A stretch of DNA of 56,275 bases, the filler included, from Catajapyx aquilonaris (Eukaryota), in NCBI GenBank assembly GCA_000934665.2. It is 3 parts of 3 records of this genome, joined end to end, with 100 filler letters (N's around TTAATTAATTAA, not from the genome) between each part and the next. Parts side by side here need not be neighbours in the genome. Positions count along the whole stretch, not along the records: positions 18,786 to 37,453 come from KZ539570.1; 2 more parts are not named here. One strand, given 5' to 3'. The position numbers and the translations under genes are program-made. Shown in pieces: positions 15,131 through 37,553 of this stretch. The notes beneath the pieces are model-generated. The model worked only from the letters and a program-made list of their open reading frames with translations. It ran no database searches and had not been told where the DNA came from. The stretch's first letter is position 1. Every line of letters starts with the position of its first letter.

Positions 15131-16605
15131 ATATTAGTGCAATCGGATTTAATTATTATTAGTTACATTTTCGTATTTAAATGTGAATAGTATAAGTACA
15201 GTAGGATTGAAATATTACTTTCCAAGAGGCGCGGCTTGGTATTCCCCAGTGGTCTTCTGTCGACCGTGCAGCTTGTCCGCATAGACACAAGGGACTAGAC
15301 TATCCTTTCAAGTGCTCCCTGTAGCGTAAGCCACTTGGTACAGTACTTTAGGAGCTGGCGTTATGAAAAATAGAGGAAGATGAGAGGTGCTGTCGACGAG
15401 AGCTCTCCCGGACAGAATGCAGAGGCACAAAAATATAAGTGGGCTCCTCTGAAACCCAAAATGAATGGTCCTTAGTCATACAAAAGTGTATGTGCATTTG
15501 ACTCTCCGATTCAGCTGCAGTACACTTTTTAAACAAGTTTTAGGTCGGAGTGATCTCATATTACTTCTACTGTCAAAATAAACTACCTTGTATGCCTATA
15601 TAAGTTTTTTGGGGGTTTTGTTTTTGGCACTATAAATTACTATGAGCCAGCTGTTCTGGAATTGCTGTGAAAGTTAGGCATTACCATGGTAACGTCCAAA
15701 CCTCAGCTGCACTCTTGATGTAGACAACCTACTGTATAACTTAGCAAAATGTTATTTTGTCATGACCTGTCTGCAAAATAGTACGTATTCATGAGTTATA
15801 TCTACAACATGGAACTTTTTATCTTACTGGAAGCCTTTTTCTCAGTCTGCAATATATTGCCATTGGAGTGACGATTATAGGCATAATAAACATACGGTAA
15901 CCTTTCCATTAGCGAGAAGGAAGCTTAACGATGAACCACTCGAACTCTTGGCGAAGAACTCACGGTGATATTTGAATCCCATATACAGTAATTATAATGT
16001 TAATAAGGGCGCCGGATACCTCTGCGATTTTTCATAATGGCGGGCCAAGTTTGGCCGAGTCACGGGTGCAGCGTTCTCTTTGCACCGCCGATGCGGACGT
16101 CTCGCTAGAGGTACACACTTAAAGTTTTCACAGCATGACGAGGAAGATCCAATTAAGCCCCGTATCGGTGACGTCAGTGGTGGATGATTAGTAACCAGAT
16201 GAGCCCTGACTCCAACCAATATTCGCGTAAAAAACGTGCTGTGTTCGCATCGGAGAGTGGCGGTCGTGGGGGCAGCCTGGTGCAGCTGAACGGGCCTCGC
16301 ACAGTTACGAAGACTGCTCGGGGCCGGACCATTCGTGCCGAAGGCGCGCCAATTGGGGCGAAGCCCCAAAGGGCCCCCTCCTCCCGCCTCGCAAAGAAAG
16401 TAGCCCTATATTATTGCATGCATGATTCTTCTTGCCATTTCTCTGTACTTCATGTAAAACACGGTGATGATTCTTTTGATCCGTTGAAATGAATTCACTA
16501 TACTTGTAGCGAGTTCGTCCATGCATGATTCCACGGTACATCAGTTGGTGTCACGGTTTGTCGTTCTTGTGACTTACGATGTTGCTCTACTTGCTCTTTT
16601 TCCAG

Positions 16606-16733
16606 TTTGCAACCAGTTTTCACGAGGCGTGTTCTCCATGCTGGGAGCAGTGAGTCCGGATTCCTTCGACACACTGCACTCCTACAGTAACACTTTCCAG
16701 ATGCCCTTCGTCACGCCCTGGTTCCCCGAAAAG
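16606..16733 (+). CDS. GluRIA: AMPA-type ionotropic glutamate receptor, internal exon of the N-terminal (LIVBP-like) domain
   Basis: ttttccag|TTTGC...GAAAAG|gtacta. Encodes CNQFSRGVFSMLGAVSPDSFDTLHSYSNTFQMPFVTPWFPEK, nearly identical to Drosophila GluRIA/IB as I recall it. Phase 1 to phase 0. Confidence 0.93.
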
Positions 16734-17189
16734 GTACTACAGAACCAAACCCAATCTCTGCCAATTCTCGCCATTTCCAGACACTCGCTCCGCCCCCCCC
16801 CCCCCATTTCCCCTCCAAAAAGAGAGGGGGAGGGGTGGCAGAGAGGAAGGGGGGGAAATCACTCAGTCGCGAGGGAAGAAAATATTGGCAAGAATGGATT
16901 GAGTTCCCGTCAAGTAGATCGCTTCAGAGTTACAATAATGCTTCTTTTTTTCGTAAGGAATATACTCGTATATACGAAACGAAAAGTCGATTTGCACTTA
17001 AAGCTATGACAAAAAGTATGAAGAAAATTTGCATATTTTCTAATATTACATTGTTTTTACTCTTTGCCAATTGCATGCATGATGTAGTGGAGACGTAGTT
17101 TTTCCTGGTCTAGGAACGATTTCTGTGCAAAAGCATGAATATTTTCCTAAGTTGCCGAGAGGGCTAATTTGGTGGTAATTTCCGGCCAG

Positions 17190-17319
17190 GTTCTAACTCC
17201 ATCTTCGGGTCTCCTCGACTACGCAATGAGCATGCGTCCGGATTATCACCATGCAATCATCGACGTTATCAACTACTACGGCTGGAAGAAGATCATTTAC
17301 CTCTACGACTCTCACGACG
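17190..17319 (+). CDS. GluRIA: AMPA-type ionotropic glutamate receptor, next internal exon
   Basis: ggccag|GTTCTA...GACG|gtaaag. Encodes VLTPSSGLLDYAMSMRPDYHHAIIDVINYYGWKKIIYLYDSHDG, in frame with the previous exon. Confidence 0.93.
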
Positions 17320-17999
17320 GTAAAGTCCTCCTTTTATAAGTACTATCACATTTTGGGTAGACTAATGTTAAGGGCTGCGGAAACGTGGCGGCGACTCTTT
17401 GCCGTGGCAACGATAGGATGGTGCATCCGATGTAATCCGGGCCGAGGGCAGGACAGAAACATTACGAAGCCTAATTTTGCAGACCTGATGGATGCAGATC
17501 GCTTCAAAAATGATCAGATTTGTGCATATTAAAACAACAACAACGGTTGAGGCCTTTTAAAATATTTTTCATATTTTTACAGGAGAATTATGCACATGAT
17601 TGTCATTATCCATTATGTTGTGCACATAAGTTGCTACGAAACCCAGGGACGAACAAGGAATTAAAACCAGTTGACCATTGAAAGGATTCACTAATTCCTA
17701 ACTATGAAAAAATTGACATCGGCACTACTCTGTTTTACAACTTAATAATAATTATGCATTGTAATCCAATGTTTCCGACTGTCTTTACTGCACTTTAATA
17801 CTCGTAACTCATCATTATAAAGCACTGCAATTGATTTTCTTTCCATCTCGCGGTCATTTCACATGTTTTTTCTTCTTCTTTTGCTCTTATTGACACGTGT
17901 TTGGCCTTTCTCTTCGACTCAGTTGTCAGTGAAACGGAGGTCTCACAATGGGATATTAAGAGGTTTTCATGGGGGTCTGACTGAGCAGAAGATCGAGGG

Positions 18000-18685: not shown

Positions 18686-18785
18686 NNNNNNNNNNNNNNN
18701 NNNNNNNNNNNNNNNNNNNNNNNNNNNNNTTAATTAATTAANNNNNNNNNNNNNNNNNNNNNNNNNNNNNNNNNNNNNNNNNNNN
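18686..18785. other. Artificial assembly spacer N44-TTAATTAATTAA-N44
   Basis: Exactly 100 nt. The central 12-mer gives stop codons in all six frames. An identical construct lies at 37454-37553. Confidence 0.95.
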
Positions 18786-19629
18786 CCAACTCGCAAAGAT
18801 ATGTTGAAAAATTAGGAATAACTATCAAGGAACTAAATAGGTAAAAACCTACAAATCCGGGGCCTAATTATTATATAGTGTTTGAGAAGCAGGAGCAGGA
18901 TGAGATGCTGCTACCAGGCACAACAATAATGTGTAATCTTGGTGTGCAAAGGACTTTTGATTTGGGATGACAGATTTGAAACACAGGGTAGTACACTACT
19001 AAAGTTGACTCCTCCTATAATGGAGAGGGGTGAAACTTGCTGGGTTGCTTCATCCAGAGAGTGGTTCAGCAGTAATTCCCTCGCTCACAGATAGAAAGGA
19101 CCTGGCTTGGATGCTACACCTGGGTTTCAGGATCTCATACAAGATTTAGGGTCTGTGTATCAGGTGGTATTTCCTCCAGATTAACCGCCAGGTAGAACCA
19201 CTGAAATGACCTTGCACCTGCATCACCATTAACCATGGTATAACAGCATGTGAAGAAAGTGCTGTCCTCACCAACTCTGAAGTGCTCACTAGATAATAGC
19301 TGTTCCGATGCACTGGCCTGGATGCAATTACAGGCAAACCCCCAACTTATTACATTGACCTGGACATTAGTGACTCACTTCTGGAATTGAACTGAGACCT
19401 TTCCATCTGTGGGCATGTACTTTACTGCAGTGCTACTCCGGCTTCCACAGCAACCAATGTGATATATGCAGATTTTCAGTAATACATGCAAGTGGTTTTG
19501 CTAGATATTAAGATAGATTGCATTTAGGGTTGCAATCACAAAAATTTGTGAGAAAATATTTCTGACAGGTGTGTAATGCTGTGGGAATGGATTGATAATT
19601 TCTAAAATATTTTGTAATTTTCACACTAG

Positions 19630-19770
19630 TAGGAAGCGATCTCGCTCCTTGTCATCATCCAGCACTAGCTCTGAAGGTTCTGAAGATCGTCGTGTCACCA
19701 GCCGCATTCGGCGTTCCCATGACCGCAAGATGGATGAAGTTGACCGGCTGGCAGAGCTTGAGAGACAAAG
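19630..19770 (+). CDS. ARGLU1: Arginine and glutamate-rich protein 1, internal exon
   Basis: Tandem TAGTAG acceptor (exon start 19630 or 19633). Encodes RKRSRSLSSSS...MDEVDRLAELERQR. Donor AG|gtaagt. Confidence 0.88.
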
Positions 19771-19910
19771 GTAAGTAAAACTCAGCACTTTCTCTCATAC
19801 TGCATATGATTGGAGGGTTGTGGGACACTTGCAAGCCCACACTAGTAGCTAGTCCACCGATAACAGGTGTTTGACAGCCTTGAATATATTGAACTAAGGT
19901 CCCTCCCCAG

Positions 19911-20136
19911 ACGTCAGAGGGAGCTGGAGCAGAAGATGATCGAGGAGGAGACAGCCAAAAGGATAGAGGAGCTGGTAGCAAAGAGGGTGGAGGAAGAATT
20001 GGAGAGGAGAAAGGAGGAGATTGAAGCGGAGGTGCTGAGGAGGGTGGAGGAAGCAAAGAAGATCATGGAGCAGCAGATGATGGAGGAGTTGGAGAGGAGA
20101 CGGCAACAACAGCTGGAGGAGGAGAAGAAACGGGAG
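19911..20136 (+). CDS. ARGLU1: ARGLU1 exon (226 nt)
   Basis: ccccag|ACGTCAG...CGGGAG|gtaagg. Encodes [50 protein letters not shown]. Confidence 0.95.
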
Positions 20137-21475
20137 GTAAGGACTTCCACGACTATGATCCTCCAAGAGGAGGATTTGCAGCTCACAGGGTTGGGGGAAT
20201 CTGAAGACAGAAGCACCAAGGGTGGGTTTATGACCAGAAATAGGGCCGACTGAAGGAGCACTTTTCATTTCAATGGAGATTAGAAATATTTCTGGGTCCT
20301 TTGGCCACAGAGGCTATGTATTCAGATAGTCATTATCTCACTGTACAAACAATGTGCGTCTGATATGAGTGCAGTTCGCACTTTGCCTGTGTGTTTCCAC
20401 ATGTGATTATAAGAATATCATGCCATATTTGGAGACTAGGGTGTACGTACATATTTTGGAGAGTAACTGGCACCCACTATCAGATACTATTCCTTCCGTC
20501 GACACTTAAGAAATTTGTGGCTAGTATGGTCAGGGTGGGATATAGTCTTGATGAACTTTTGTCCACTGACTCTTGAGTATTTTGTGACCAAAAAATGTGC
20601 TGTAACAGTGGGAGGAAGGGGAAAAGGACTGATATATGGACTGTTGCATTTTTCCCCACCCATCCCTCATCAAAACATTGTGGTTTCAGTGAAACCAATA
20701 AATCTCTCTTAGAAAAGAGCAAGATAACAGGAGTTGTCCAGTTATCAACTATGATTTATCATTTTCTGCCCTCTAGCTTTGTGGTAGGAATCAAGATTGG
20801 ATAAATTTTGTATGGATTCAGTGTTCTCTTCAATTTGTCACTTCCGTCTCTCTATACGTCTTTCTTCAATGTGTGATGACAGTATTCTGCACATATTTGT
20901 TTAATTTTTTTTATTTAGGGAGCTGAAAATCTGAACTCTTCCTCCCTCCCTCCCCCGACACATGCTGGGCTTACGAGATTGTGCAGAATAGTGGCAGGTA
21001 TCTTGGCCCTGGGTCCTGAAGCCTTGGGACCCAGGGTTTTGCTTTCAGTAGTTGAAACACAGTCAAAAGACCAGCATGTGATATGTATAATCAGTGCTCG
21101 TGCTGCCTTATGAACCTCATTTCAACCCTAAGTGACTTCCCCCTTTTACCAACATTTTGTTCCTGCCAAGAGACTTGAAGAGACAAAACTGCTTCAAATT
21201 GCATAATGGGTGTCGGGCGGTTTTGACCCACTCAGAATTGAATAAACAGAGAGACAAAGTCTTGTGTGTTAGCAAATGAAAGAAACGTTTCCTCATCACC
21301 ATTGCGAGAAGACTGCAGCGCTCTCATTTATACTAAGAATGCATTTGAGGCTGTGAGTTTACAGAATAAGCAGCATCGGAAGGAAGGTGTGAGATGGACG
21401 CAGCCACTAAGGTATTACCCATCCTTTTTTATATTTTTCATGTCACTCTCTTCTTTGTTTTATTTTTTTTGCAAG

Positions 21476-21550
21476 GTACTGTTTGCAGGGTTGCCACTTT
21501 TGAATTTGCCACCTCGCGTATCAAATAGCTTTTGATACCCCAAGACCAGG
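21476..21550 (+). promoter_or_regulatory. Candidate ARGLU1 poison (premature-stop) cassette exon
   Basis: Long polypyrimidine tract 21423-21470. Acceptors AAG (21475) and CAG (21488). Donor AGG|GTAAGT at 21550. Either acceptor gives an in-frame TGA. Confidence 0.6.
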
Positions 21551-22125
21551 GTAAGTATAGGCTGGAAGGATAAGTAGACAGTTAAAACCCTGGCAGTCAA
21601 TTTTGAATAGCAGGAAGGAATGAAGTTCACACTTGATTTCATTTGCTGTGTTGGTTGGCCAGGAAGTGGCAACCTGGCAAGGTCAATGTTCCTTGTGTAA
21701 ATAGTATGTTCTGCCAGTGGTTACATATAATTTTGCTTTGATAACAGGAAAAATGATCATTTTAAAGAAAAATAAAAAATTTGGGCAGTTTATGAAAAGG
21801 CTGCAGAGCCCTGAGAGAGTCATTTCCTTGCATCCTCTACATCATGTGGTACACTTTTAGTCATTGTTTTTTTACCACTTAATGGGATGGGTTGACTGAA
21901 GCATGAGATTAGAAATGGAGGCCTCGAAGGAAGTCCCTCTCTCCCCCGTCTCAATAAAATTGTTTTCCACAGGCTACTGCTCATTAAATGACATAATAAA
22001 AAAGCATCCATGCAAAAGAGTGTTGTTAAGTTTTCCCAATTGTTTGATACCTAGTCAGCAGTAGTTTGTAACAAAAAGGGACTGTGGATGTGACTTTGGT
22101 TAACATGCATTCCTTGCCTTTATAG

Positions 22126-22209
22126 GAGGAAGAAAAGAAGAAGAGAGAGGAGCTGGAGAGGATCATGGAGGAGAATAATCGTAAAATTGAGGAGGCCCAG
22201 CGGAAGCTG
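22126..22209 (+). CDS. ARGLU1: ARGLU1 exon (84 nt)
   Basis: ttatag|GAGGAA...AAGCTG|gtgagt. Encodes EEEKKKREELERIMEENNRKIEEAQRKL. Confidence 0.95.
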
Positions 22210-22281
22210 GTGAGTTGGTCTGCGGAATTTTAATACCTTGCAACAGGGCTTGATTTTCGGGAATTTGTGGGGATCCTGCAG

Positions 22282-22446
22282 GCAGAAGAAAGGCTAGCAA
22301 TGGTAGAAGAGCAACGGAGAATAGACGAGGAGAGGAGACGACTCACAAAAGACCATGAGAAGAGGATGAAGGAGGAGCAGAAGAAAATCTTGGGGAAGAA
22401 CAACTCCAGGCCCAAACTTTCTTTCAGCCTGAAACCTACAGCATGA
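22282..22446 (+). CDS. ARGLU1: ARGLU1 terminal coding exon
   Basis: ctgcag|GCAGAA...GCA TGA. Encodes [19 protein letters not shown]...[20 protein letters not shown]. Confidence 0.95.
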
Positions 22447-26785: not shown

Positions 26786-28183
26786 AACATACTGCTCCTT
26801 ATTTATACAATATACACTCTGAAGTACAACAATAATGATACAAGGTACCCTTATCTACTACATTTCTGATGGCAGTTTAAGTGGTTACTAGCATTACACC
26901 TTTGGTCATAACTAGCAGTGATCTGCTGGTGTGCTCTCACAACACTATCACAGATTATTTTCAAAATATGTATAACTGCATTGAAATGTTTTCAGAGACT
27001 ATCAAGCATATTTATATGCATGATTGTGACAGTTGCAATTTAATGTTAATGTTTCACTACTTATTGTATTTCTACTAATTTGTTCTTGAATTCATATTTG
27101 TAATGCAGGCAAGCAGGAGAAATATTTTGCACTAGGATAAATGAACAAGTAAAGAAATTTTTATAGGGGAACATGAGGTATAGAAAATATCAGAGTAGGA
27201 ATGAAAAACTATTTCTCAAGCTATGATGATGGTCAAAAAATCTGTAGGTAGGCACTAAAGTGACCACTGTTGACATTTATTATGGTGCCAAGGCACTTTG
27301 CAACAATAACGTAACACTCAGGCATTGCAATTTTTAATGAGGGTATTGAGGATGAGGGGTAGCTATAGTTTTACGACCTCCTAGCTGTGCAGCATCGGCA
27401 CTATGCTTAGGAAACTTCCATGCAGGAGAGGGAGTGTTGCAATACATTGTCTGACAGTGGGTCAAGTGCCTAAATGTCGTCATCAGCTATTACGCTGAAA
27501 AATAGGTAACTTTGTATTTTTAAAAGCTAGTCACTAGTAATTTTTGTTCTGAGGTTTTTAACTTTTAAAATGATCGATTGCCTCCTTGATAATTTTAATC
27601 CTGAATATCTGTTGGACTACTTTTATGTGAATGACAATATTAAATTACTGCAGGCCTACTTATTGATTTTCAATCACTGTTACATTGCAACCAAAATTGC
27701 TAAGGTGGATAGTGAGATTCTAACATTTTAAGCAAGCACTGAATTTGTACAGTTTTACACATCCACTTTCATTTTGGTATTGCACCCGCACGACATTATA
27801 ATTATGAATAATTTCATGATTCATTGGTATGGGGGCTAGGAGAAATTAAATTAGGTACCTATACTGATGTTAGGAAACATCATACCTTGAATAATAGCAG
27901 GTTATAATATTATCCTTCTTCCTCCACATCAGAATTATCAGAACATAATTGACTTCCCTCACTTCAGGAAGCACTCACATTTTAGAAGCCCCAGTGGTCC
28001 GTTCCCTGGTCCGTAACGAAGGGAGGACCACCACAAGAAAATTGATTATCACAAGTTTGGTTTCATATATTTAGTGACATGTCACAGTAAATTTTATGCA
28101 TTACTACGACAGTAGTACATTATTGTAGACTGGCCCAACAGCATTGCAATGTAGCTGCCTCACCCTTCAATTACATTGGGTCA

Positions 28184-29487
28184 TTAGTAATACTGAAAAG
28201 GTGTTGAAGAGCAACCAGTCTCGCTGATGTTATCTGACAAATATAATCGCCTTTTGGATCCACTCTTATAACTTCCTCCTGTGATGTCCTTCCCAATCAA
28301 TCCCTTCTCACTCTGTGTTGATGTCATATATGGCAATGAATTTTGTCCTGAAGTGTACGGTCGGCACCAGCCGGTCCAGCATTTCTGCAAGTCATTGTGG
28401 ACCTGCTCTGTTCCATCTGTCCTTTTGTTCCGCAACTTTTTGAGGCTAGCCAGGGACTTCACCTCAAGTTCCATAGTACTATCCTTACGTTGCCCACCCA
28501 TCGTATTTTTCAGCCCCCGCTTGAGTCGCTCTGCATTGCATATGGCCATGCGCTGTGTGATGGGCCCCACTGTTTCATGTAGTGACTGCTCTGGGAGTGA
28601 CTCGATTAGTTTGGTTTTTATAGCATACTCTATGCGTTGAGGGCGTCCTGTGCAGACATTCACCTTTGGGAGACTTTTGCTTGACATGTGTTTTGGCTTC
28701 TCATTGCATGCATCTAATCCATTGCATGCATCTTCTGAAGCTAATCCTGTTGTTTTTTGGCTACTGATTATTTTCCTGTGGTGTTCCGCAAGGGTCTGGG
28801 AACATTCTGCGATTGATTTTTCACATTGCTCTTCAAGCTGGTCCAGTAACATCTTTTCTTTCTGGGCATCCTTCTTGCTAAGTATATCCCATGGACGTTC
28901 ACATTTTAGTGTACTCCTGGGCAGGAATTTGGCAGGCTTCTCAGACACAGTTGGAACCATCTTTGGTTTCACTCTCTTTGGCTTCTCATCCTTGCCGATA
29001 ACCCATTCAATTGTTACCTCTTCATCCTTCTTCCCTTTCTCACTCTTCCCACTTTTGTCGCACTTGCAACCCTTTCTTTCATGCTTCCCGGCCCTATCAC
29101 CCTTCTCACTAGTCTCTCCAGCAGCATCCTTTTTGGTCTTTATTTTTGGGGGCTTGATACATGCGTTAGACCCATGTATTTGCAAGGAACGGCTAGATTT
29201 TAGAGGTCGATGCACCTTCTCTACCTTCCCAGCAATTTCCATGGCCTTTGCTTCCTTGCCTGCTACTTTTTCCAGAGCAGCAACATTGATAGGCATATCA
29301 GGTAATGGCAGAAGCCCAGGGATCTCAGGGATGTGACTGACCATGGAGAAATATCTCTTGTTGATGCCATTGCCAATCACTTGGAGGTCGATGCCAGTGT
29401 AAGGCTGCAGAGGGGCCTGGTGTTGCTTGTAGACCATTTCAAACATTCCAGTATTGCACACCTTGTCTTCCTTGCGATCGATGACCA
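28184..29487 (-). CDS. TTLL3: Tubulin glycylase 3-like, exon 9 (end of TTL domain plus long basic low-complexity tail)
   Basis: ttccag|TG GTC ATC GAT CGC (VVIDR...TGMFEMVYKQ); 434-codon ORF ending TAA. Confidence 0.92.
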
Positions 29488-29993
29488 CTGGAAGTGATGT
29501 TATTTTGGAACTTCATCATGATCAATACATGATATCAGTGAGGATATGTTAAGTCAACACTTAATAACAATGAAATACTGGATCAGTTCTAGTGAGGGAC
29601 TGAACATTCAAACAAAAATGTATGAGATTTACTATAACTCACCCATGATTCCCTATGATTTGCATGGCCTATTCACCCTCTAAAAGTCTAAAGTCTAATG
29701 GTACTGTACAAGATTCACCCAAGAGTCACCTACAGTCCGTAAAACGAACAATCTGATGTCACATTCAGCCTGCCTCCACCCAGATCTTCCATCCTATCAC
29801 ATGCCCGAATCACTCCGCTGCTCATGCTCAGAAAATACAGGTGCTGTGACGTCAGATCGTTCTCTCGTTTAAAGGACTGTAATTGTCCAACTACCCTTAT
29901 ATTCTAGAATGGGGCTAACCATGAGAATGACCCTGATGTGAAAACCCAAGAAAACTGCCATACTCCTCATATCAAGCTCATATTATACTATAC

Positions 29994-30247
29994 CTTTGAT
30001 AATGTCCTCAAGGCAGTTGGCACACATCCTGGCTGTGACACTCGTGCTGGGCGACATGCACGGGCAAGAGTTGATCTCGATGAGCCAGGGTTTAAAATCC
30101 TCCGTAAGCATGAAGTCTGCTCCAAAGAGCTCAAAGGAGTTCTTGCGGTTGTTTACACCATCCTGTGATGCGAGAAGTGTTCCGACAATCCCTTCACGCA
30201 TGCCAGGGTATATTGTGTCGTACCACACATTTCTGTAGCCAGCTCCC
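29994..30247 (-). CDS. TTLL3: Tubulin glycylase 3-like, exon 8
   Basis: Encodes VWYDTIYPGM...RKNSFELFGADFML...PWLIEINSCPCM...EDIIK; cag and gtatag splice sites. Confidence 0.95.
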
Positions 30248-30496
30248 CTGTGAGAGATTCACAACCACATATTAACCCTTTATGTATTGCAGATCATTCA
30301 GTTGCCACTGCAGGGTTTTTGAAAGTAAAATTTTGTCGAATTCTAGTGTTGAGAAAATTAACTCTCCAAAACTCTGAACAACCAGGATCTAGTTGTAATA
30401 CTAGCCTGTTATCACCAGACATGTACTATGCACGTAGCACCAAAAATCTTTTGAAACTTAAAATTATTAATATTTCGGAACATTGTTTTTAATTAC

Positions 30497-30664
30497 TTCA
30501 GATAGGCCTGGAATGTGTAGCAGTCCCACATGTTCTCTTCAGGGAGCAAGTTGTTCCTCTCTCCATTTATGTAATGCTTCTGGACAGCATTGTTGCAGAG
30601 ATGAATGGACTCGTGCATGTCTACGAGTGAGAATGTCTTGGAGCAGAATCGGAGGTAACTCTCC
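30497..30664 (-). CDS. TTLL3: Tubulin glycylase 3-like, exon 7
   Basis: Encodes ESYLRFCS...SIHLCNNAVQKHY...NMWDCYTFQAYL; cag and gtaatt splice sites. Confidence 0.95.
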
Positions 30665-30725
30665 CTGTGGTAGATCTCATTATTAATTTGGATGATTAAC
30701 AAGAATGTGAACATAATATAATATA

Positions 30726-31152
30726 CTAGGAAAACCCTCACTCCGCTTGCATTGTCCTAGGGCGCAGGCCTAAAAAACCACTCGCTTCGCTTGCTCTTTT
30801 CTAGGCCTGCGGCCTAGGGTACCTATTCGGCGCACCATATCGCCGGGGGAGGGTGTAACGTTAGCCCTCCAGCAGTCTTCGAACGGCCCTATTAGTGAGA
30901 AGTGAGAACATGTCTGTCCTGTGTCTGTCGTTCCATAAAGGGAACTGACTCTGTAAACAACTTGACAGTAGTGCCAACTGGGCAACAATACAGAGAGCGA
31001 ATGGACAGTTTCCCTGGCAACCCAACAGTGGAGTTGTTTACACCGCATTGCGCATAAGTAGAACGCGGGCCAATGGGAAGGTGGCTGTAACAATATGCAG
31101 CGGACCAATCAGAGGGCTTGGCCAACTCCCGCAAGGATTTTAATATTGTAGA
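30726..31152 (-). mobile_element. Non-autonomous Helitron, copy 3, inside TTLL3 intron 6
   Basis: Minus strand A|TCTACAATATTAAAATCC ... hairpin CTAGGCCGCAGGCCTAG ... GTGAGGGTTTTCCTAG|T. Inserted between A and T with no TSD. Confidence 0.8.
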
Positions 31153-31170
31153 TGGTGTGAACATTTATAC

Positions 31171-31261
31171 CTGTACATCCATATTGTGAGAGGATTCCAA
31201 TCAGTGACAAGGAACCATTGTCGAATGTCAAATTTTGTATTGAAGATGAGTAGAGGGCGCT
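31171..31261 (-). CDS. TTLL3: Tubulin glycylase 3-like, exon 6
   Basis: Encodes [30 protein letters not shown]; ttccag and gtataa splice sites. Confidence 0.95.
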
Positions 31262-31331
31262 CTGGAACAAGGAGGGAGGAAACAATGCAAAATTACCTGG
31301 AGTTTCAGAAGAACCCTGCTACTGTTCATAC

Positions 31332-31545
31332 CTATGTATTTTTGAACCACATATCGGTTGTCATGGCCAGGAGCTGCACGAGCAAACTGGAGGATCCTGT
31401 CCAGCTTGTTGGTGATTATGATTCCTCTGCCTCTAGACTTTGCACCTGGTTTGATTATCCAGACATTGTCCATGCCATCCATTTCCAGAGTAGACCAGAA
31501 CTTACTCGCATTAGCCAGCACTTCAGCAGCTTTCACGATCAATTG
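31332..31545 (-). CDS. TTLL3: Tubulin glycylase 3-like, exon 5
   Basis: Encodes QLIVKA...MDGMDNVWIIKPGAKSRGRGI...YVVQKYI; caccag and gtatga splice sites. Confidence 0.93.
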
Positions 31546-32111
31546 CTGGTGGTAACAGAGGCGTTCATAGGGACAGTGTTCCAGTTCATTAGGGTTACGA
31601 AGAGACTTGTCAAGGATAAACCCCACACACCGTATTGCAATAATGATTTGTTCAAATAAATTTCTTTCGTACAATTTTTGAACTTAAGCAATTTAGCAAT
31701 TGGCATTTTACTAATTAAATTTACCAAGGGGCCCTCACTTTCAAGACTTGGAAATATGTATTCCAGGAATTTGTTTGCTATGAACTGCCACAATTTTTAC
31801 TGGGAGTATATGCATTAACATTGTACATACATTAATTTCTACTACATTATTTAAATATCACTTTCAGTAAGTGATGCAGGACTAGAAAAATGGTCACAAT
31901 CTAAAATTACTAGAAACAAAATAGAAAAATTCTCTCAGGTTCATACCACCAGCTGTGGCATATTTAAATGTAACATGGCAATGTGCATTGAAGATGCCTG
32001 TTTCTCTTAGAAGCACAGTCATGTGATTAACCACCCTGTGACACTGATGCATTGCTTTCCTCACTGAGTAAAATAGTATTTGCTTAAAATAGTGAATGAC
32101 GGAAAACTCAC

Positions 32112-32618
32112 CCTAAGAGCTGCATTTGGTATATATCTTATGTTTTTGTTCTCGTGCACAATGTGGTAGTACCACTCTGTGAACTCAGCCCATTCTCTCT
32201 CCACTTCTTGTGGTTCTTTGGTGTCCCATGTGTCAATGTCTTCATGCAAGCAAAAGGTGACATAATCCTTGCAGTGCTGTATTGCAAACTCAAAGGCCGA
32301 AGCAGGAGCTCCTAGAGTAGTCAGGGATTCTTGACTGGGAGGTGTTGCAGGTTCTTCTTTCTTTTTTTGGGAAAGAAGTTCTTCCACAGTCGAGGGCATG
32401 GTCTCGAAATCAGGACCTGTGAAATTCCGGCTGAGGTCACATTTTGACTTGGATACAAGCCACTGAAGGAGGCTGAAGCAGGCAGTAGTACGAAAGTCTT
32501 CTATAAAGGCAGAACGGTCCTCTTCATGGCAGAGAATGTAGCATCGTGGGAATAATGTCCTGGCCACTTCAGCCTCTTGGAACCACTGGTTCGTCTGCAA
32601 GCTCTGGCACAGACCGAT
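32112..32618 (-). CDS. TTLL3: Tubulin glycylase 3-like, exon 4
   Basis: Encodes IGLCQSLQTNQWF...FPRCY...FIEDFRTTAC...; aag acceptor and gtgagt donor. Confidence 0.92.
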
Positions 32619-33520
32619 CTTGTGGGTAGAAAGAACTGCTATTAATATTATTTTTATACTATACTTAGGGGCCGTCCATAAATCACGTGATGCTGCTTGG
32701 GGGGGGNCATGTTGAAAATGGAGCCGGGGCGCAATTCCTTTTGGATCTAGTTGCTTTAATATGTGAGACATTTTTAAAGACAATTTCACTCTAGTGAATT
32801 TTTTTCGCTTTCGGCTACAAGACGGATATAATCGAATTTAATTATTAAAATTCAATGCCAGCACTGCCTCTGGGGTCTTAGTGTTCCTCTCTTAAGTTTA
32901 AATATACCACTGTTTATATGTCTTGCAATATATAGCATTGTCAAGTACGCATGCAGTCTCAATAGGAACAAAAAATATCACATGACAAAGGGGCGGGGAG
33001 GGGGGGGGGGTTTTACCTCAAATGTCATGGTGGGTCACATGGGGGGAGTATAAGAGGCGCTTACAACAAAAGTGGCCCAAGTCCAAAAATGCAATTTTCG
33101 AGATAGGACTGCCATCACATTCAGAGAACTACTCCAAGTTGGTAAATAAAATGGTATAAATCCTAAGTTGGATATTTGGGCAGTAAATGACATAATGTCA
33201 TTTATGCTCCAAGGATAGTTGCCTACCCCTTGGAGCAATCCTGGTGTAAGTCCCATACCAGCTGTTAAAGATGGCTGCTGACGAAGATCCAAGCGATATT
33301 TCTGGGGGCACCTCTATGGACAAAATAATATTGTGTATGACAAATAATAAGTGTGTGGCTGTCAGTTTTGGAATGTTTAAAAGTATGTTGTGAATTTGCG
33401 AATTTTAAATATTTGCTGAAAATTGCCTTTTCTTAAATTTTTTATTGAAATTAATTTTTACTAAAATCATTTTTGTTAAAGTTGAGGAATGATCAAAGGA
33501 AATTTTATAAATGCAGTTGA

Positions 33521-33679
33521 GATGAGCTATAACAGCCTTGGCTATAATGGACTCGAAAGGAAGGTCCCGGCATATTTCCATAATCATGGCTTGTAAATTC
33601 GGCTATAACTACAGACCTTGGCTATAACAAGACTGATTTCCGCGGTCCCTTGAAGTCTATTATATCCGGATTCAATTGT
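33521..33679. mobile_element. Deleted copy of the pogo/Tigger-like MITE family seen at 52874-53303
   Basis: Shares the GGCTATAAC repeats and the TTATATCCGGATTCAA(C/T)TGTA end. Confidence 0.55.
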
Positions 33680-33971
33680 ATTACACCCAGTCAACAATGG
33701 TGTAAGTTTATGATTCTGTAGGATCAATATGGTGTAAGTCATATACGATTTTTTATCAATAAATCAGTTTTTTTTGTTTCAGTAGCAATACATCTCAAAA
33801 TGACTGCCCTGTAATGATTGCCAATCTGACACAATATGGATCCAGTCATATGATTTTCCTTTTTTCTATGACCTTTCAAACTTGCAGGCGAATTATCCCA
33901 AATTGAGCTTTTTGGACTTTGGGCCACTTTTGTTCTAAGCGCCTCAATTATGTACAAGTCTGCTGTCATAC

Positions 33972-34231
33972 CTTTGTGGTAAAAGTAGCGTTGGGGAAGC
34001 GGTTGACAAGTACATCACGAGCTATCATCCTCCAATTGATACTGTCCCTTCTCACTGTCCAGTAGAAATCAGCAGGGGCATCTACACAGCGCAGGAGTCT
34101 TGATATGAGGCTAGCATCACTCTCTAGCTCAGTCAGACCCCCAGTATAATCTTTCAGGTTGTCCAACCACTCGGTTGTGGGGGTTCTCACATCCTCCTTA
34201 CTGCAGGGTGTGGATGGAACTGTCACCACAT
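33972..34231 (-). CDS. TTLL3: Tubulin glycylase 3-like, exon 3
   Basis: Encodes LISRLLR...PADFYWT...VNRFPNATFTTK; tgcag and gtatga splice sites. Confidence 0.92.
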
Positions 34232-34606
34232 CTGCAATTAGAGATGGATATCAGACATTAGAAATGATTATGGAGGAGTAGGTCATATCAAGGTGGTTAT
34301 GTAATCATGCTTATTATTGGCATGACAAATGTCAACAAAGTTTAAACATAGACTTGCAATTTAGATGGGTGGGAGGAAACCACCAGACACAACTTTGCAT
34401 GCTTCATGGATATAGATGCAGTGACCCAGTTTGATGGATCAATGGTGGTGCCTATAGCAGAGTGAACTTTTCCCCCTCCCCCTCCACACTTTTTTCTATA
34501 TTGGCATGCTTGCTGTAAATTATAACTAAAAATAGCTACCTTTCGAAATGCTTAGGTGGCATGGAGTCTTTTTTTGTGAGCAATAATTGGGACAGGAGTA
34601 GCTCAC

Positions 34607-34778
34607 CTGAAATGCTCTCTTCGTCTGGTGATGATGGTCTGCTCGTCTTACTGCTGGGGGCCTTACTGCGGCCTGGCTTAGTGTTCAGGAGGATATTAAC
34701 CCTCTCCACCCAGCCTCTCTTCTTCATTGCATGGCGAACTGAGTTGTAGTTACCGTTGATGGAGAAAACCTTATGGTT
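34607..34778 (-). CDS. TTLL3: Tubulin glycylase 3-like, exon 2
   Basis: Encodes NHKVFSINGNYNSVRHAMKKRGWVER (TTLL3/8 RGWVE motif). Phase-1 donor CAG|GTGAGC. Confidence 0.9.
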
Positions 34779-34840
34779 CTGAAAATGGCCAAATAATTCA
34801 TTTACAGTGGCATACTTTACGACTTGTTCAACTGTCTCAC

Positions 34841-35392
34841 CTTGATGGCCATTTCAACGATGTCCCTTAGAAATTTCATTCTCTCAGCATTGCTATTGGG
34901 TACCGGCACCTTAAGGGAGCTGCACTTATCCTGGAGAAGTTTGCTGAATGGCAGCAATGAATTAGTGTCTCCATTGCCTTCACCGCCATCTCCATTGATC
35001 TCCACTGGGGTACCGGGTACTTTCTGGGCAGACAGCTTAATCAACTCCTTTCCATTTTCATCCTGGTTCTGGTTGTTGTTGCTATCGAATACATTAGGTT
35101 CACGATTGGCCAAAAGGGGCTCCATGGGTGGTCCCTGGTGCTTTTGAGTTTCAAACGAGCTTGCTGTGGATTTGGTTGGATGGGTGGGAGAAGGAGGGAT
35201 GTCAGAGTGGGTGGCCCACTGGTATTTGGAAGTATGAGGTTGAGGCACCACTGTTTCCCTGGAGACTTGTTGGTCAGCAGATCCAGCAGTGCCATTATTG
35301 TCATTGTTGTCGCCTCCATTGTTGCTGGCAGCAGCTTGAATGGAGGTGGAGGCGACACTTGCATCTTCACCCCAGGCACACTTCTTGTGCAT
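34841..35392 (-). CDS. TTLL3: Tubulin glycylase 3-like, first coding exon (low-complexity N-terminus; start codon uncertain)
   Basis: ATG at 35392 preceded by an in-frame TAA. Donor AAG|GTGAGA is in frame with exon 2. Acceptor at 35472-35473 and an upstream donor GAG|GTGAGT at 35663 imply a non-coding 5' exon. Confidence 0.75.
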
Positions 35393-35866
35393 TTAGTTTT
35401 CCATTTAGTCATGGGCCCTTGCATTGATGTGGATTGCACATTCAACAGGTCTTGACATTATTGTCATTGCACTGTAGGAGAAAAAGATACATGCCATGTA
35501 ATAAATAAATAAAAGGAAAACAGACTGCCCAATTAGATAACCATGGCAGAATAGCAGAGATCACCATAACCAAGAGCTAATAACTTGCCATAACTGATTC
35601 GTGATAATACCTTGCATGATATTTTACCATAAACGTTGGCATTAGTTGCATGCCACACTCACCTCAAAGAGAGCTGTGAAAGTGACAATATGTCTTCATT
35701 ATCAACAGCACGCCATGTAACAATTCACAGAAACCTAAAGATCCACCCTAATAATATTTTTAGACACTGGCATAACTTACGTATAGTTAAGCCACTATTA
35801 TAAAATTGGTTTGTAACACAATAAATTTGATATGGTTTATATTAGAGCGGTATTTGTATCTGGACA

Positions 35867-37453: not shown

Positions 37454-37553
37454 NNNNNNNNNNNNNNNNNNNNNNNNNNNNNNNNNNNNNNNNNNNNTTA
37501 ATTAATTAANNNNNNNNNNNNNNNNNNNNNNNNNNNNNNNNNNNNNNNNNNNN
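37454..37553. other. Artificial assembly spacer N44-TTAATTAATTAA-N44
   Basis: Exactly 100 nt, same construct as 18686-18785. Confidence 0.95.

Follow-up and report, generated by a model that had tools for sequence, protein, structure and literature searches.

A conserved candidate decoy cassette, with a predicted helix over its splice acceptor, in the retained long intron of the Catajapyx aquilonaris ARGLU1 gene

The ARGLU1 gene of Catajapyx aquilonaris contains a 1989-nt intron that is present unspliced in RNA contigs whose neighboring introns are spliced, and within it lies a conserved non-coding block whose polypyrimidine tract, acceptor and donor delimit a small frame-breaking cassette, the acceptor of which is predicted to be covered by an RNA helix. 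We consider it probable, if far from certain, that this is a conserved splicing-control element, namely, a structure-masked decoy/poison cassette favoring the retention of its host intron. The features concerned are listed below, with positions counted along the window (i.e., the whole analyzed stretch of 56,275 nucleotides) and a slash marking the cut in splice site motifs:

19630..19770, + strand: ARGLU1 coding exon corresponding to the 3' end portion of human exon 1; its spliced joint onward is found in 4/4 runs
19911..20136, + strand: ARGLU1 exon, human exon 2 equivalent, 226 nt, phase-0 donor
20137..22125, + strand: retained intron, 1989 nt, equivalent of human intron 2 as judged by position
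21183..21557, + strand: principal conserved non-coding block, which aligns in each of the three relatives
21307..21364, + strand: three conserved islands upstream of the cassette, with 11, 19 and 11 nt shared identically with a distant insect
21409..21417, + strand: conserved donor-like site AAG/GTATTA, cut after 21411
21420..21470, + strand: polypyrimidine tract, 84% pyrimidine, conserved in the distant insect
21474..21475, + strand: weak upstream AG in the context AAG, exon start 21476
21483..21499, + strand: predicted helix 5' arm, comprising the CAG acceptor (21487-88) and exon bases 1-11
21489..21550, + strand: candidate decoy/poison cassette, 62 nt (3n+2), TGA at 21501-21503
21550..21557, + strand: conserved donor G/GTAAGTA; the alignments of two relatives end at 21557
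21664..21680, + strand: predicted helix 3' arm, within a second conserved island (21663-21689)
21963..22125, + strand: conserved 3' block, found in three relatives and not in the distant insect
22126..22209, + strand: ARGLU1 exon, human exon 3 equivalent, 84 nt
22282..22446, + strand: last exon, coding part, 165 nt including the stop

The gene was identified as ARGLU1 by its PF15346 match and is present in a single copy in this genome, as is the cassette element. An initial annotation of the window had given the intron as 1989 nt long, the short introns flanking it as 140 and 72 nt and the surrounding exons as 226, 84 and 165 nt, and all of these values were confirmed, the short introns being at 19771-19910 and 22210-22281; its description of the intron as the only long one in the gene did not hold up, the upstream intron being at least 844 nt and running off the contig, which starts at 18786. 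A further 5' ARGLU1 exon is present in RNA contigs and not on the genomic contig from 18786 onward, hence the second long intron upstream; an exact-pattern search for this exon gave no match in the window or in this species' genome. As human exon 1 is split here, the match to the human “intron 2” is a positional one. Of 120 homologous proteins listed, 109, vertebrate ones included, are read-through products leaving the coding sequence at the same codon (7/120 are spliced and 4/120 continue otherwise), and the vertebrate ARGLU1 gene analyzed (L010) has the exon sizes seen here, which are also those that the initial annotation gave for the human gene; its donor motifs are those in Table 1 of PMC5389617, and its cassette is 58 nt long, as stated in PMC6097662. 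Taken together, the shared codon and the exon sizes and motifs of L010 make the long intron, by its position, the equivalent of human intron 2, as had been claimed.

Reading through the retained intron leads to a stop at 20251-20253, 38 codons in. The first 120 nt of the intron (20137-20260) align in two relatives to about this stop, and retention would add 38 residues; a coding role for this stretch is doubtful, because the changes in it look non-synonymous and one relative carries an indel. The exon at 19630..19770 has tandem acceptors (start at 19630 or 19633, with loose contig ends at 19628 and 19631), such acceptors being seen at two constitutive exons in the window (19628-19632 and 19897-19910). 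Relative X6 seems to splice its 226-nt exon at an acceptor located 12 nt further upstream, other taxa have short in-frame inserts at the 5' junction of this exon, and one further ARGLU1 locus (L042) has an extra intron within the exon-2 equivalent.

Retention was examined in one sequencing run of this species (X5) and in runs of three relatives (X6, X7 and X9), i.e., in four of nine runs, X8 and four source-like DNA runs having been left out. The four runs carry no RNA record and were read as transcriptomes because GT-AG joints across both short introns are present in all of them. Both flanking spliced joints were recovered together with contigs inside the long intron in 4/4 runs; the intron is fully covered by contigs in X5, and a single 3515-nt contig of X9 spans both spliced joints and the entire long intron, assembled contigs being graph paths and not molecules. 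Two of the four runs (X5 and X6) include the joint formed when the long intron is spliced out, and no joint into or out of the cassette is among the contig joints listed for the four; since assembly contigs drop rare forms, neither the missing cassette joints nor the missing long-intron joints in X7 and X9 are evidence of absence. Contig depth in the intron versus the junction (23.4 versus 49.5 in X5; 17.3 versus 22.3 in X6) does not represent a retention rate, and part of the upstream intron (19450-19627) had no cover in any run and was unusable as a control.

A metagenome scan gave at least 42 ARGLU1 loci, of which 20 are RNA-like and the 22 genomic-like or uninformative ones were not counted; L020, being without flank evidence, was left out of the retention tally. 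Thirteen of the 20 RNA-like loci listed, representing about five lineages, keep the long intron with at least one flank spliced (eight with both; L029, one of the thirteen, keeps the next intron too), and the other seven splice it, the neighboring intron being kept in none of these. That the flanking introns exist in three of the retaining lineages is indicated by related genomic loci or proteins (L029, L015, and P0091 versus P0090). This tally shows the presence and selectivity of retention and not its level, as long introns are caught unspliced more easily, contigs are not molecules and the count of 42 loci is a lower bound.

Between 44% and 63% of the intron aligns at 80% or more in the relatives. 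Substitutions, counted in the pieces that aligned (which favors low rates), are fewer in the block than in coding exons for X9 (22/375 versus 26/138 in one exon, p 3e-5) and X7 (28/443 versus 52/433, p 0.005), whereas the block is not significantly more conserved than the exons in X6 (58/676 versus 50/467, p 0.26). For X7 and X9, alignment breaks off with the final base of the donor octamer and starts again at 21650/21655, shortly ahead of the 3' helix arm. A distant insect (represented by L032, L033 and L035, which form one close group), whose four-fold sites match at 9/25 and are near saturation, still matches the intron at 21307-21499 (E 1.7e-16, z 36) and again at 21663-21689 (E 0.001-0.002), whereas its other three introns and its 3' UTR show no similarity. 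Identity of the block to this insect is 71%, as compared to ~6-9% substitutions plus gaps in the relatives, and what has been kept comprises the three upstream islands, AAG/GTATTA, the tract, the donor and 18 identical bases across acceptor 21489; the cross-species alignment that had been proposed as a check on the cassette thus finds acceptor, tract and donor retained in another insect. A Timema gene model (P0003) has a 33-residue insert matching the upstream block (13/14 residues shared with L035), so a third insect group has the block. The block as a coding exon was rejected in view of single-base indels and a 2-nt frame difference between the insects. Motif scans of a viral and a prokaryote collection returned 11 bare 18-20-nt matches without ARGLU1 and none, respectively.

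The initial annotation had described a ~50-nt polypyrimidine tract, two alternative acceptors and the consensus donor AGG/GTAAGT, cut after 21550, and both tract and donor are there as stated, the tract lying in a zone with no AG between 21412 and 21473. Both acceptor AGs exist as well, but they are not equal: only the one with exon start 21489 is a CAG conserved base for base, while the upstream one keeps its AG at the same place in the distant insect without keeping its context. The premature TGA claimed for either form was likewise found, at codon 5 of the 62-nt form and at 21533-35 in the 75-nt form (start 21476). That the stop falls upstream of further junctions holds in the window and is not conserved, as the 59-nt cassette of the distant insect (also 3n+2) has no stop of its own and its shifted frame ends 62 nt into the last exon. 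Inclusion of the cassette would deprive the ARGLU domain of its C-terminal half. By a rule fitted after the site had been seen (YAG with at least 80% pyrimidines and GGTAAGT 30-250 nt downstream), this tract-acceptor-donor pair is the only one on either strand of the 56-kb window, and 3/500 shuffles of the intron produce such a pair. The cassette sites are real and the region is functional-looking.

What the initial annotation did not mention are the helix over the acceptor, the larger upstream block with its donor-like site and a second masked acceptor at 21973. The island holding the 3' arm lies 164 nt downstream and is the reverse complement of the acceptor island, the predicted helix being 17 nt long; 11 perfect pairs cover the beginning of the exon, while in the acceptor AG the G forms a G-U pair and the A is mismatched. 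Its computed duplex energy is -28.4 kcal/mol, which 0/300 shuffles equaled and which is the best of the 123 AG sites in the intron; for L035 the values are -26.5, 1/300 and second of 127 AG sites (the first being the partner arm itself). Local folding gives pair probabilities of 0.89-1.0 for the 11 exon bases in the window and 0.9 over nine of the 11 in L035, whereas the four outer helix pairs are unlikely in the window's fold and, for the 411-nt region as a whole, the fold is not better than those of shuffled sequences (z -1.7). Support for the helix comes from two independent lineages. Among three sequences from these two lineages, the arms differ by a single one-sided change, U-A to U-G, and no two-sided compensatory changes were found; with one arm base differing, this is no proof by covariation. 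The vertebrate acceptor has no such partner arm (133/300 shuffles as good), and of the candidate cassettes of other lineages one in seven is suggestive of an acceptor-masking helix (L026, 5/300) and six are not. The helix, as a predicted structure, is new here, in that a downstream island shows conserved complementarity to the acceptor. A second helix, pairing 21335-21353 with the constitutive branch region, was rejected, as this was not the best partner and 113 and 82 of 150 shuffles were as good. The loci L055, L062, L063 and L064 form a dispersed repeat family of this genome, 77-98% alike over 180-600 nt, to which the 14-mer at the acceptor is internal.

Other parts of the intron bear candidate sites too. 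The conserved 3' block contains an alternative acceptor, from which an exon would start at 21973 and reach a stop at its fifth codon; a predicted hairpin, 21969-21986 with 22052-22069, would cover this acceptor, and this might be a third unproductive route. The donor-like site at 21409..21417 is a possible second cassette or decoy 5' splice site. The same AG/GTATT motif recurs in this intron in L002, L009, L025, L027, L029 and L010. An exon-like unit at 20919-20997 (79 nt, frameshifting), only partly aligned in the relatives, sits inside an inverted repeat (20877-20893 with 20980-20996).

In the mechanism that we favor, the strong tract and donor would recruit early spliceosome parts and compete with the true ends of the intron, while the helix would mask the cassette AG, so that splicing to the cassette would seldom be completed; the transcript would stall with the intron in place, making retention the main outcome (a decoy), and an open helix would allow minor inclusion of the cassette, giving a stop-containing, unproductive message. 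The level of ARGLU1 might shift this balance and act as negative feedback, a step taken by analogy with the human gene. Deletion of the sequence downstream of the human cassette raised its inclusion, which PMC5389617 ascribes to competing donors, and a helix would give the same outcome. Since 44-63% of the intron aligns and there are other candidate sites, the flagged cassette may not be the main control.

A classic poison exon, controlled chiefly through regulated inclusion and subsequent NMD, with retention as a by-product, would account for the consensus donor, the strong tract, the early stop seen here and the 3n+2 length in both insects, and in BRD2/BRD3 the inclusion of poison exons is set by comparable helices (PMC10789245). 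We nevertheless find this reading unlikely, because the stop codon itself is not conserved, the one reached in the distant insect lies where it would be a poor NMD trigger under the junction rule, and it is the retained form that was assembled in all four runs. Somewhat less probable again is a control located mainly elsewhere in the intron, with the flagged cassette secondary, be it an upstream cassette ending at AAG/GTATTA (21411) or the hairpin-masked acceptor at 21973. The longest stretch identical to the distant insect does lie upstream of the cassette (21335-21353), the Timema model splices in a 33-codon exon matching the block, and AG/GTATT-like sites are found within conserved blocks in other lineages, as well as 35 nt ahead of the cassette in the vertebrate locus (L010); the 3' block, for its part, has the fewest substitutions in two relatives (3/191 and 8/245) and its hairpin beats 150/150 shuffles (0/150 as good). 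Yet the upstream cassette is without a conserved strong acceptor, a gene model is no proof of use, and the distant insect is without the 3' block.

It is also conceivable, though we think it improbable, that the block has been conserved for a different reason (an intron-hosted ncRNA, a protein landing pad or a DNA element) and that it contains splice-like motifs merely by coincidence. Such a function would fit both the upstream islands, to which no role is assigned, and the extension of conservation over half of the intron in the relatives, but neither an Rfam match (at E up to 1) nor a tRNA was found in the block, and the conserved bases sit on tract, acceptor and donor, with conservation ending at donor position +7. 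We give very little credence to the notion that the element is what remains of a small transposon and has no function, in which case the helix would be formed by the terminal inverted repeats and the splice-like sites would be due to chance. The helix arm has what we take to be a resemblance to hAT-type transposon ends, and the acceptor 14-mer occurs 11 times in the genome, compared to once for a control; however, beyond this 14-mer the 10 other sites have nothing in common with the window, none of them has the partner arm within the 0.9-1.2 kb examined, the element is single copy with no target-site duplication visible, and it persists where neutral sites are near saturation. A transposon origin is conceivable; a lack of function, largely refuted by this conservation, is unlikely.

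Among known systems, the closest in gene identity is vertebrate ARGLU1 itself, whose intron 2 is described in PMC5389617 and PMC6097662 as containing an ultraconserved element and being a detained intron with a 58-nt NMD/decoy cassette. The gene, intron position, phase and flanking exon sizes are the same, a retained isoform exists in both (here from contigs only, in 4/4 runs), and the intron holds a frame-breaking cassette of ~60 nt in each case (62 and 59 nt versus 58 nt). Comparison with one vertebrate locus revealed no sequence similarity to the vertebrate element (z 0.2): the alignment scores (24 for the window and 26 for L035) are at those of the null (23.6 and 24.4, respectively), and sequence homology was therefore rejected, a look-alike at the acceptor not having raised the score. 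Unlike the vertebrate intron, with its weak donor and competing downstream donors, this one has a single consensus donor with a donor-like site upstream, as well as tandem acceptors; it is not ultraconserved by the 95%/200-nt rule; and it has the predicted acceptor helix, of which the main text of PMC5389617 makes no mention. Homology, ultraconservation and the donor pattern having all been tested and none of them found, the element, although it would work much as the vertebrate switch and decoy exons do, falls outside the vertebrate ultraconserved class as far as its sequence tells.

The decoy exons that PMC6097662 describes in large introns subject to retention (SF3B1 intron 4, OGT and DDX39B) are alike in that the retained intron exceeds 1 kb (1989 nt here), retention is the visible outcome, and there are conserved cryptic exon-like units with paired and alternative splice sites; they differ in being from human cells and, in the passages on them, without an RNA helix, whereas here both the decoy and its helix are predicted. 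The BRD2/BRD3 poison exons have conserved complementary regions, and a long-range helix encloses the stop-causing exon (PMC10789245). Conserved complementary regions around an exon, predicted to suppress its inclusion, are thus shared, although the gene and the phylum are different and the BRD2 arms lie in the flanking introns, whereas one arm here covers the acceptor and the exon start. A search of the open literature (subscription papers, supplements and splicing atlases lying outside it) turned up no report of invertebrate ARGLU1 intron retention or of an ARGLU1 RNA helix.

Three groups of invertebrate loci have conserved blocks of their own in this intron, and two of these groups have an acceptor at one edge of the block and a donor at the other (37 and 40 nt; 81-89 nt). 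Such bounded units have a stop in the cassette or the next exon in 8/8 cases, as random cassettes often do too, and a ninth, ungrouped candidate unit stops in the last exon. The introns examined from other lineages share nothing with the insect element beyond short low-complexity tracts. Lineage-specific conserved exon-like units were seen in the same intron at L026:1265-1301, L041:1701-1740 and in L011/L015, and at intron positions 725-945 in L005, L020, L021, L024, L025, L027 and L029, the L024 contig stopping precisely at its donor, as expected of a fork in the assembly graph. P0022 is a 302-residue protein form with a different 3' part joined at the long-intron junction, and a gar entry (P0131) seems to include the translated vertebrate cassette.

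The initial annotation had suggested that an unproductive-splicing switch might be conserved or convergent between vertebrates and this lineage; the intron is retained in all four runs, and no sequence shared with the vertebrate element was found. The cis-element thus appears to have been rebuilt, whereas the regulated intron itself may date back to a common ancestor. This points to an old self-limiting ARGLU1 switch rebuilt from a different sequence. A bolder and decidedly tentative version, which we would not expect to hold in full, is that the regulated retention of this intron is ancestral to animals and that each lineage has since acquired a cis-element of its own (vertebrates competing donors, insects a helix masking the acceptor, and further invertebrates other lineage-specific cassettes), with the opening of the insect helix controlled by the level of ARGLU1 or by the elongation rate. 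The ARGLU1 feedback switch has been described for vertebrates only, within an element said to be of vertebrate type (PMC5389617). If the same intron is regulated in invertebrates via an unrelated sequence, this would be a case of a conserved regulatory outcome with a complete turnover of the cis-code. The insect version, moreover, offers a compact handle, namely, a 17-nt helix over a splice acceptor that is open to disruptive and compensatory mutation. As NMD in Drosophila is junction-independent and insect NMD follows other rules, it also allows one to ask which of the functions is older: retention (the decoy) or NMD.

As for the surroundings of the gene, exon-like pieces at ~16488-17320 of the window, on the preceding contig, presumably resemble the N-terminus of an ionotropic glutamate receptor, the piece tested having no Pfam match. 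The N-runs at 18686-18785 and 37454-37553 are artificial contig joins, and genes across them are not true neighbors. The gene that does adjoin ARGLU1, tail to tail and on the minus strand at ~28100-35500, is a TTLL3-like tubulin glycylase; it puts the organism among the insects, the highest identities (76-79%) being to thrips, Orthoptera and planthoppers.
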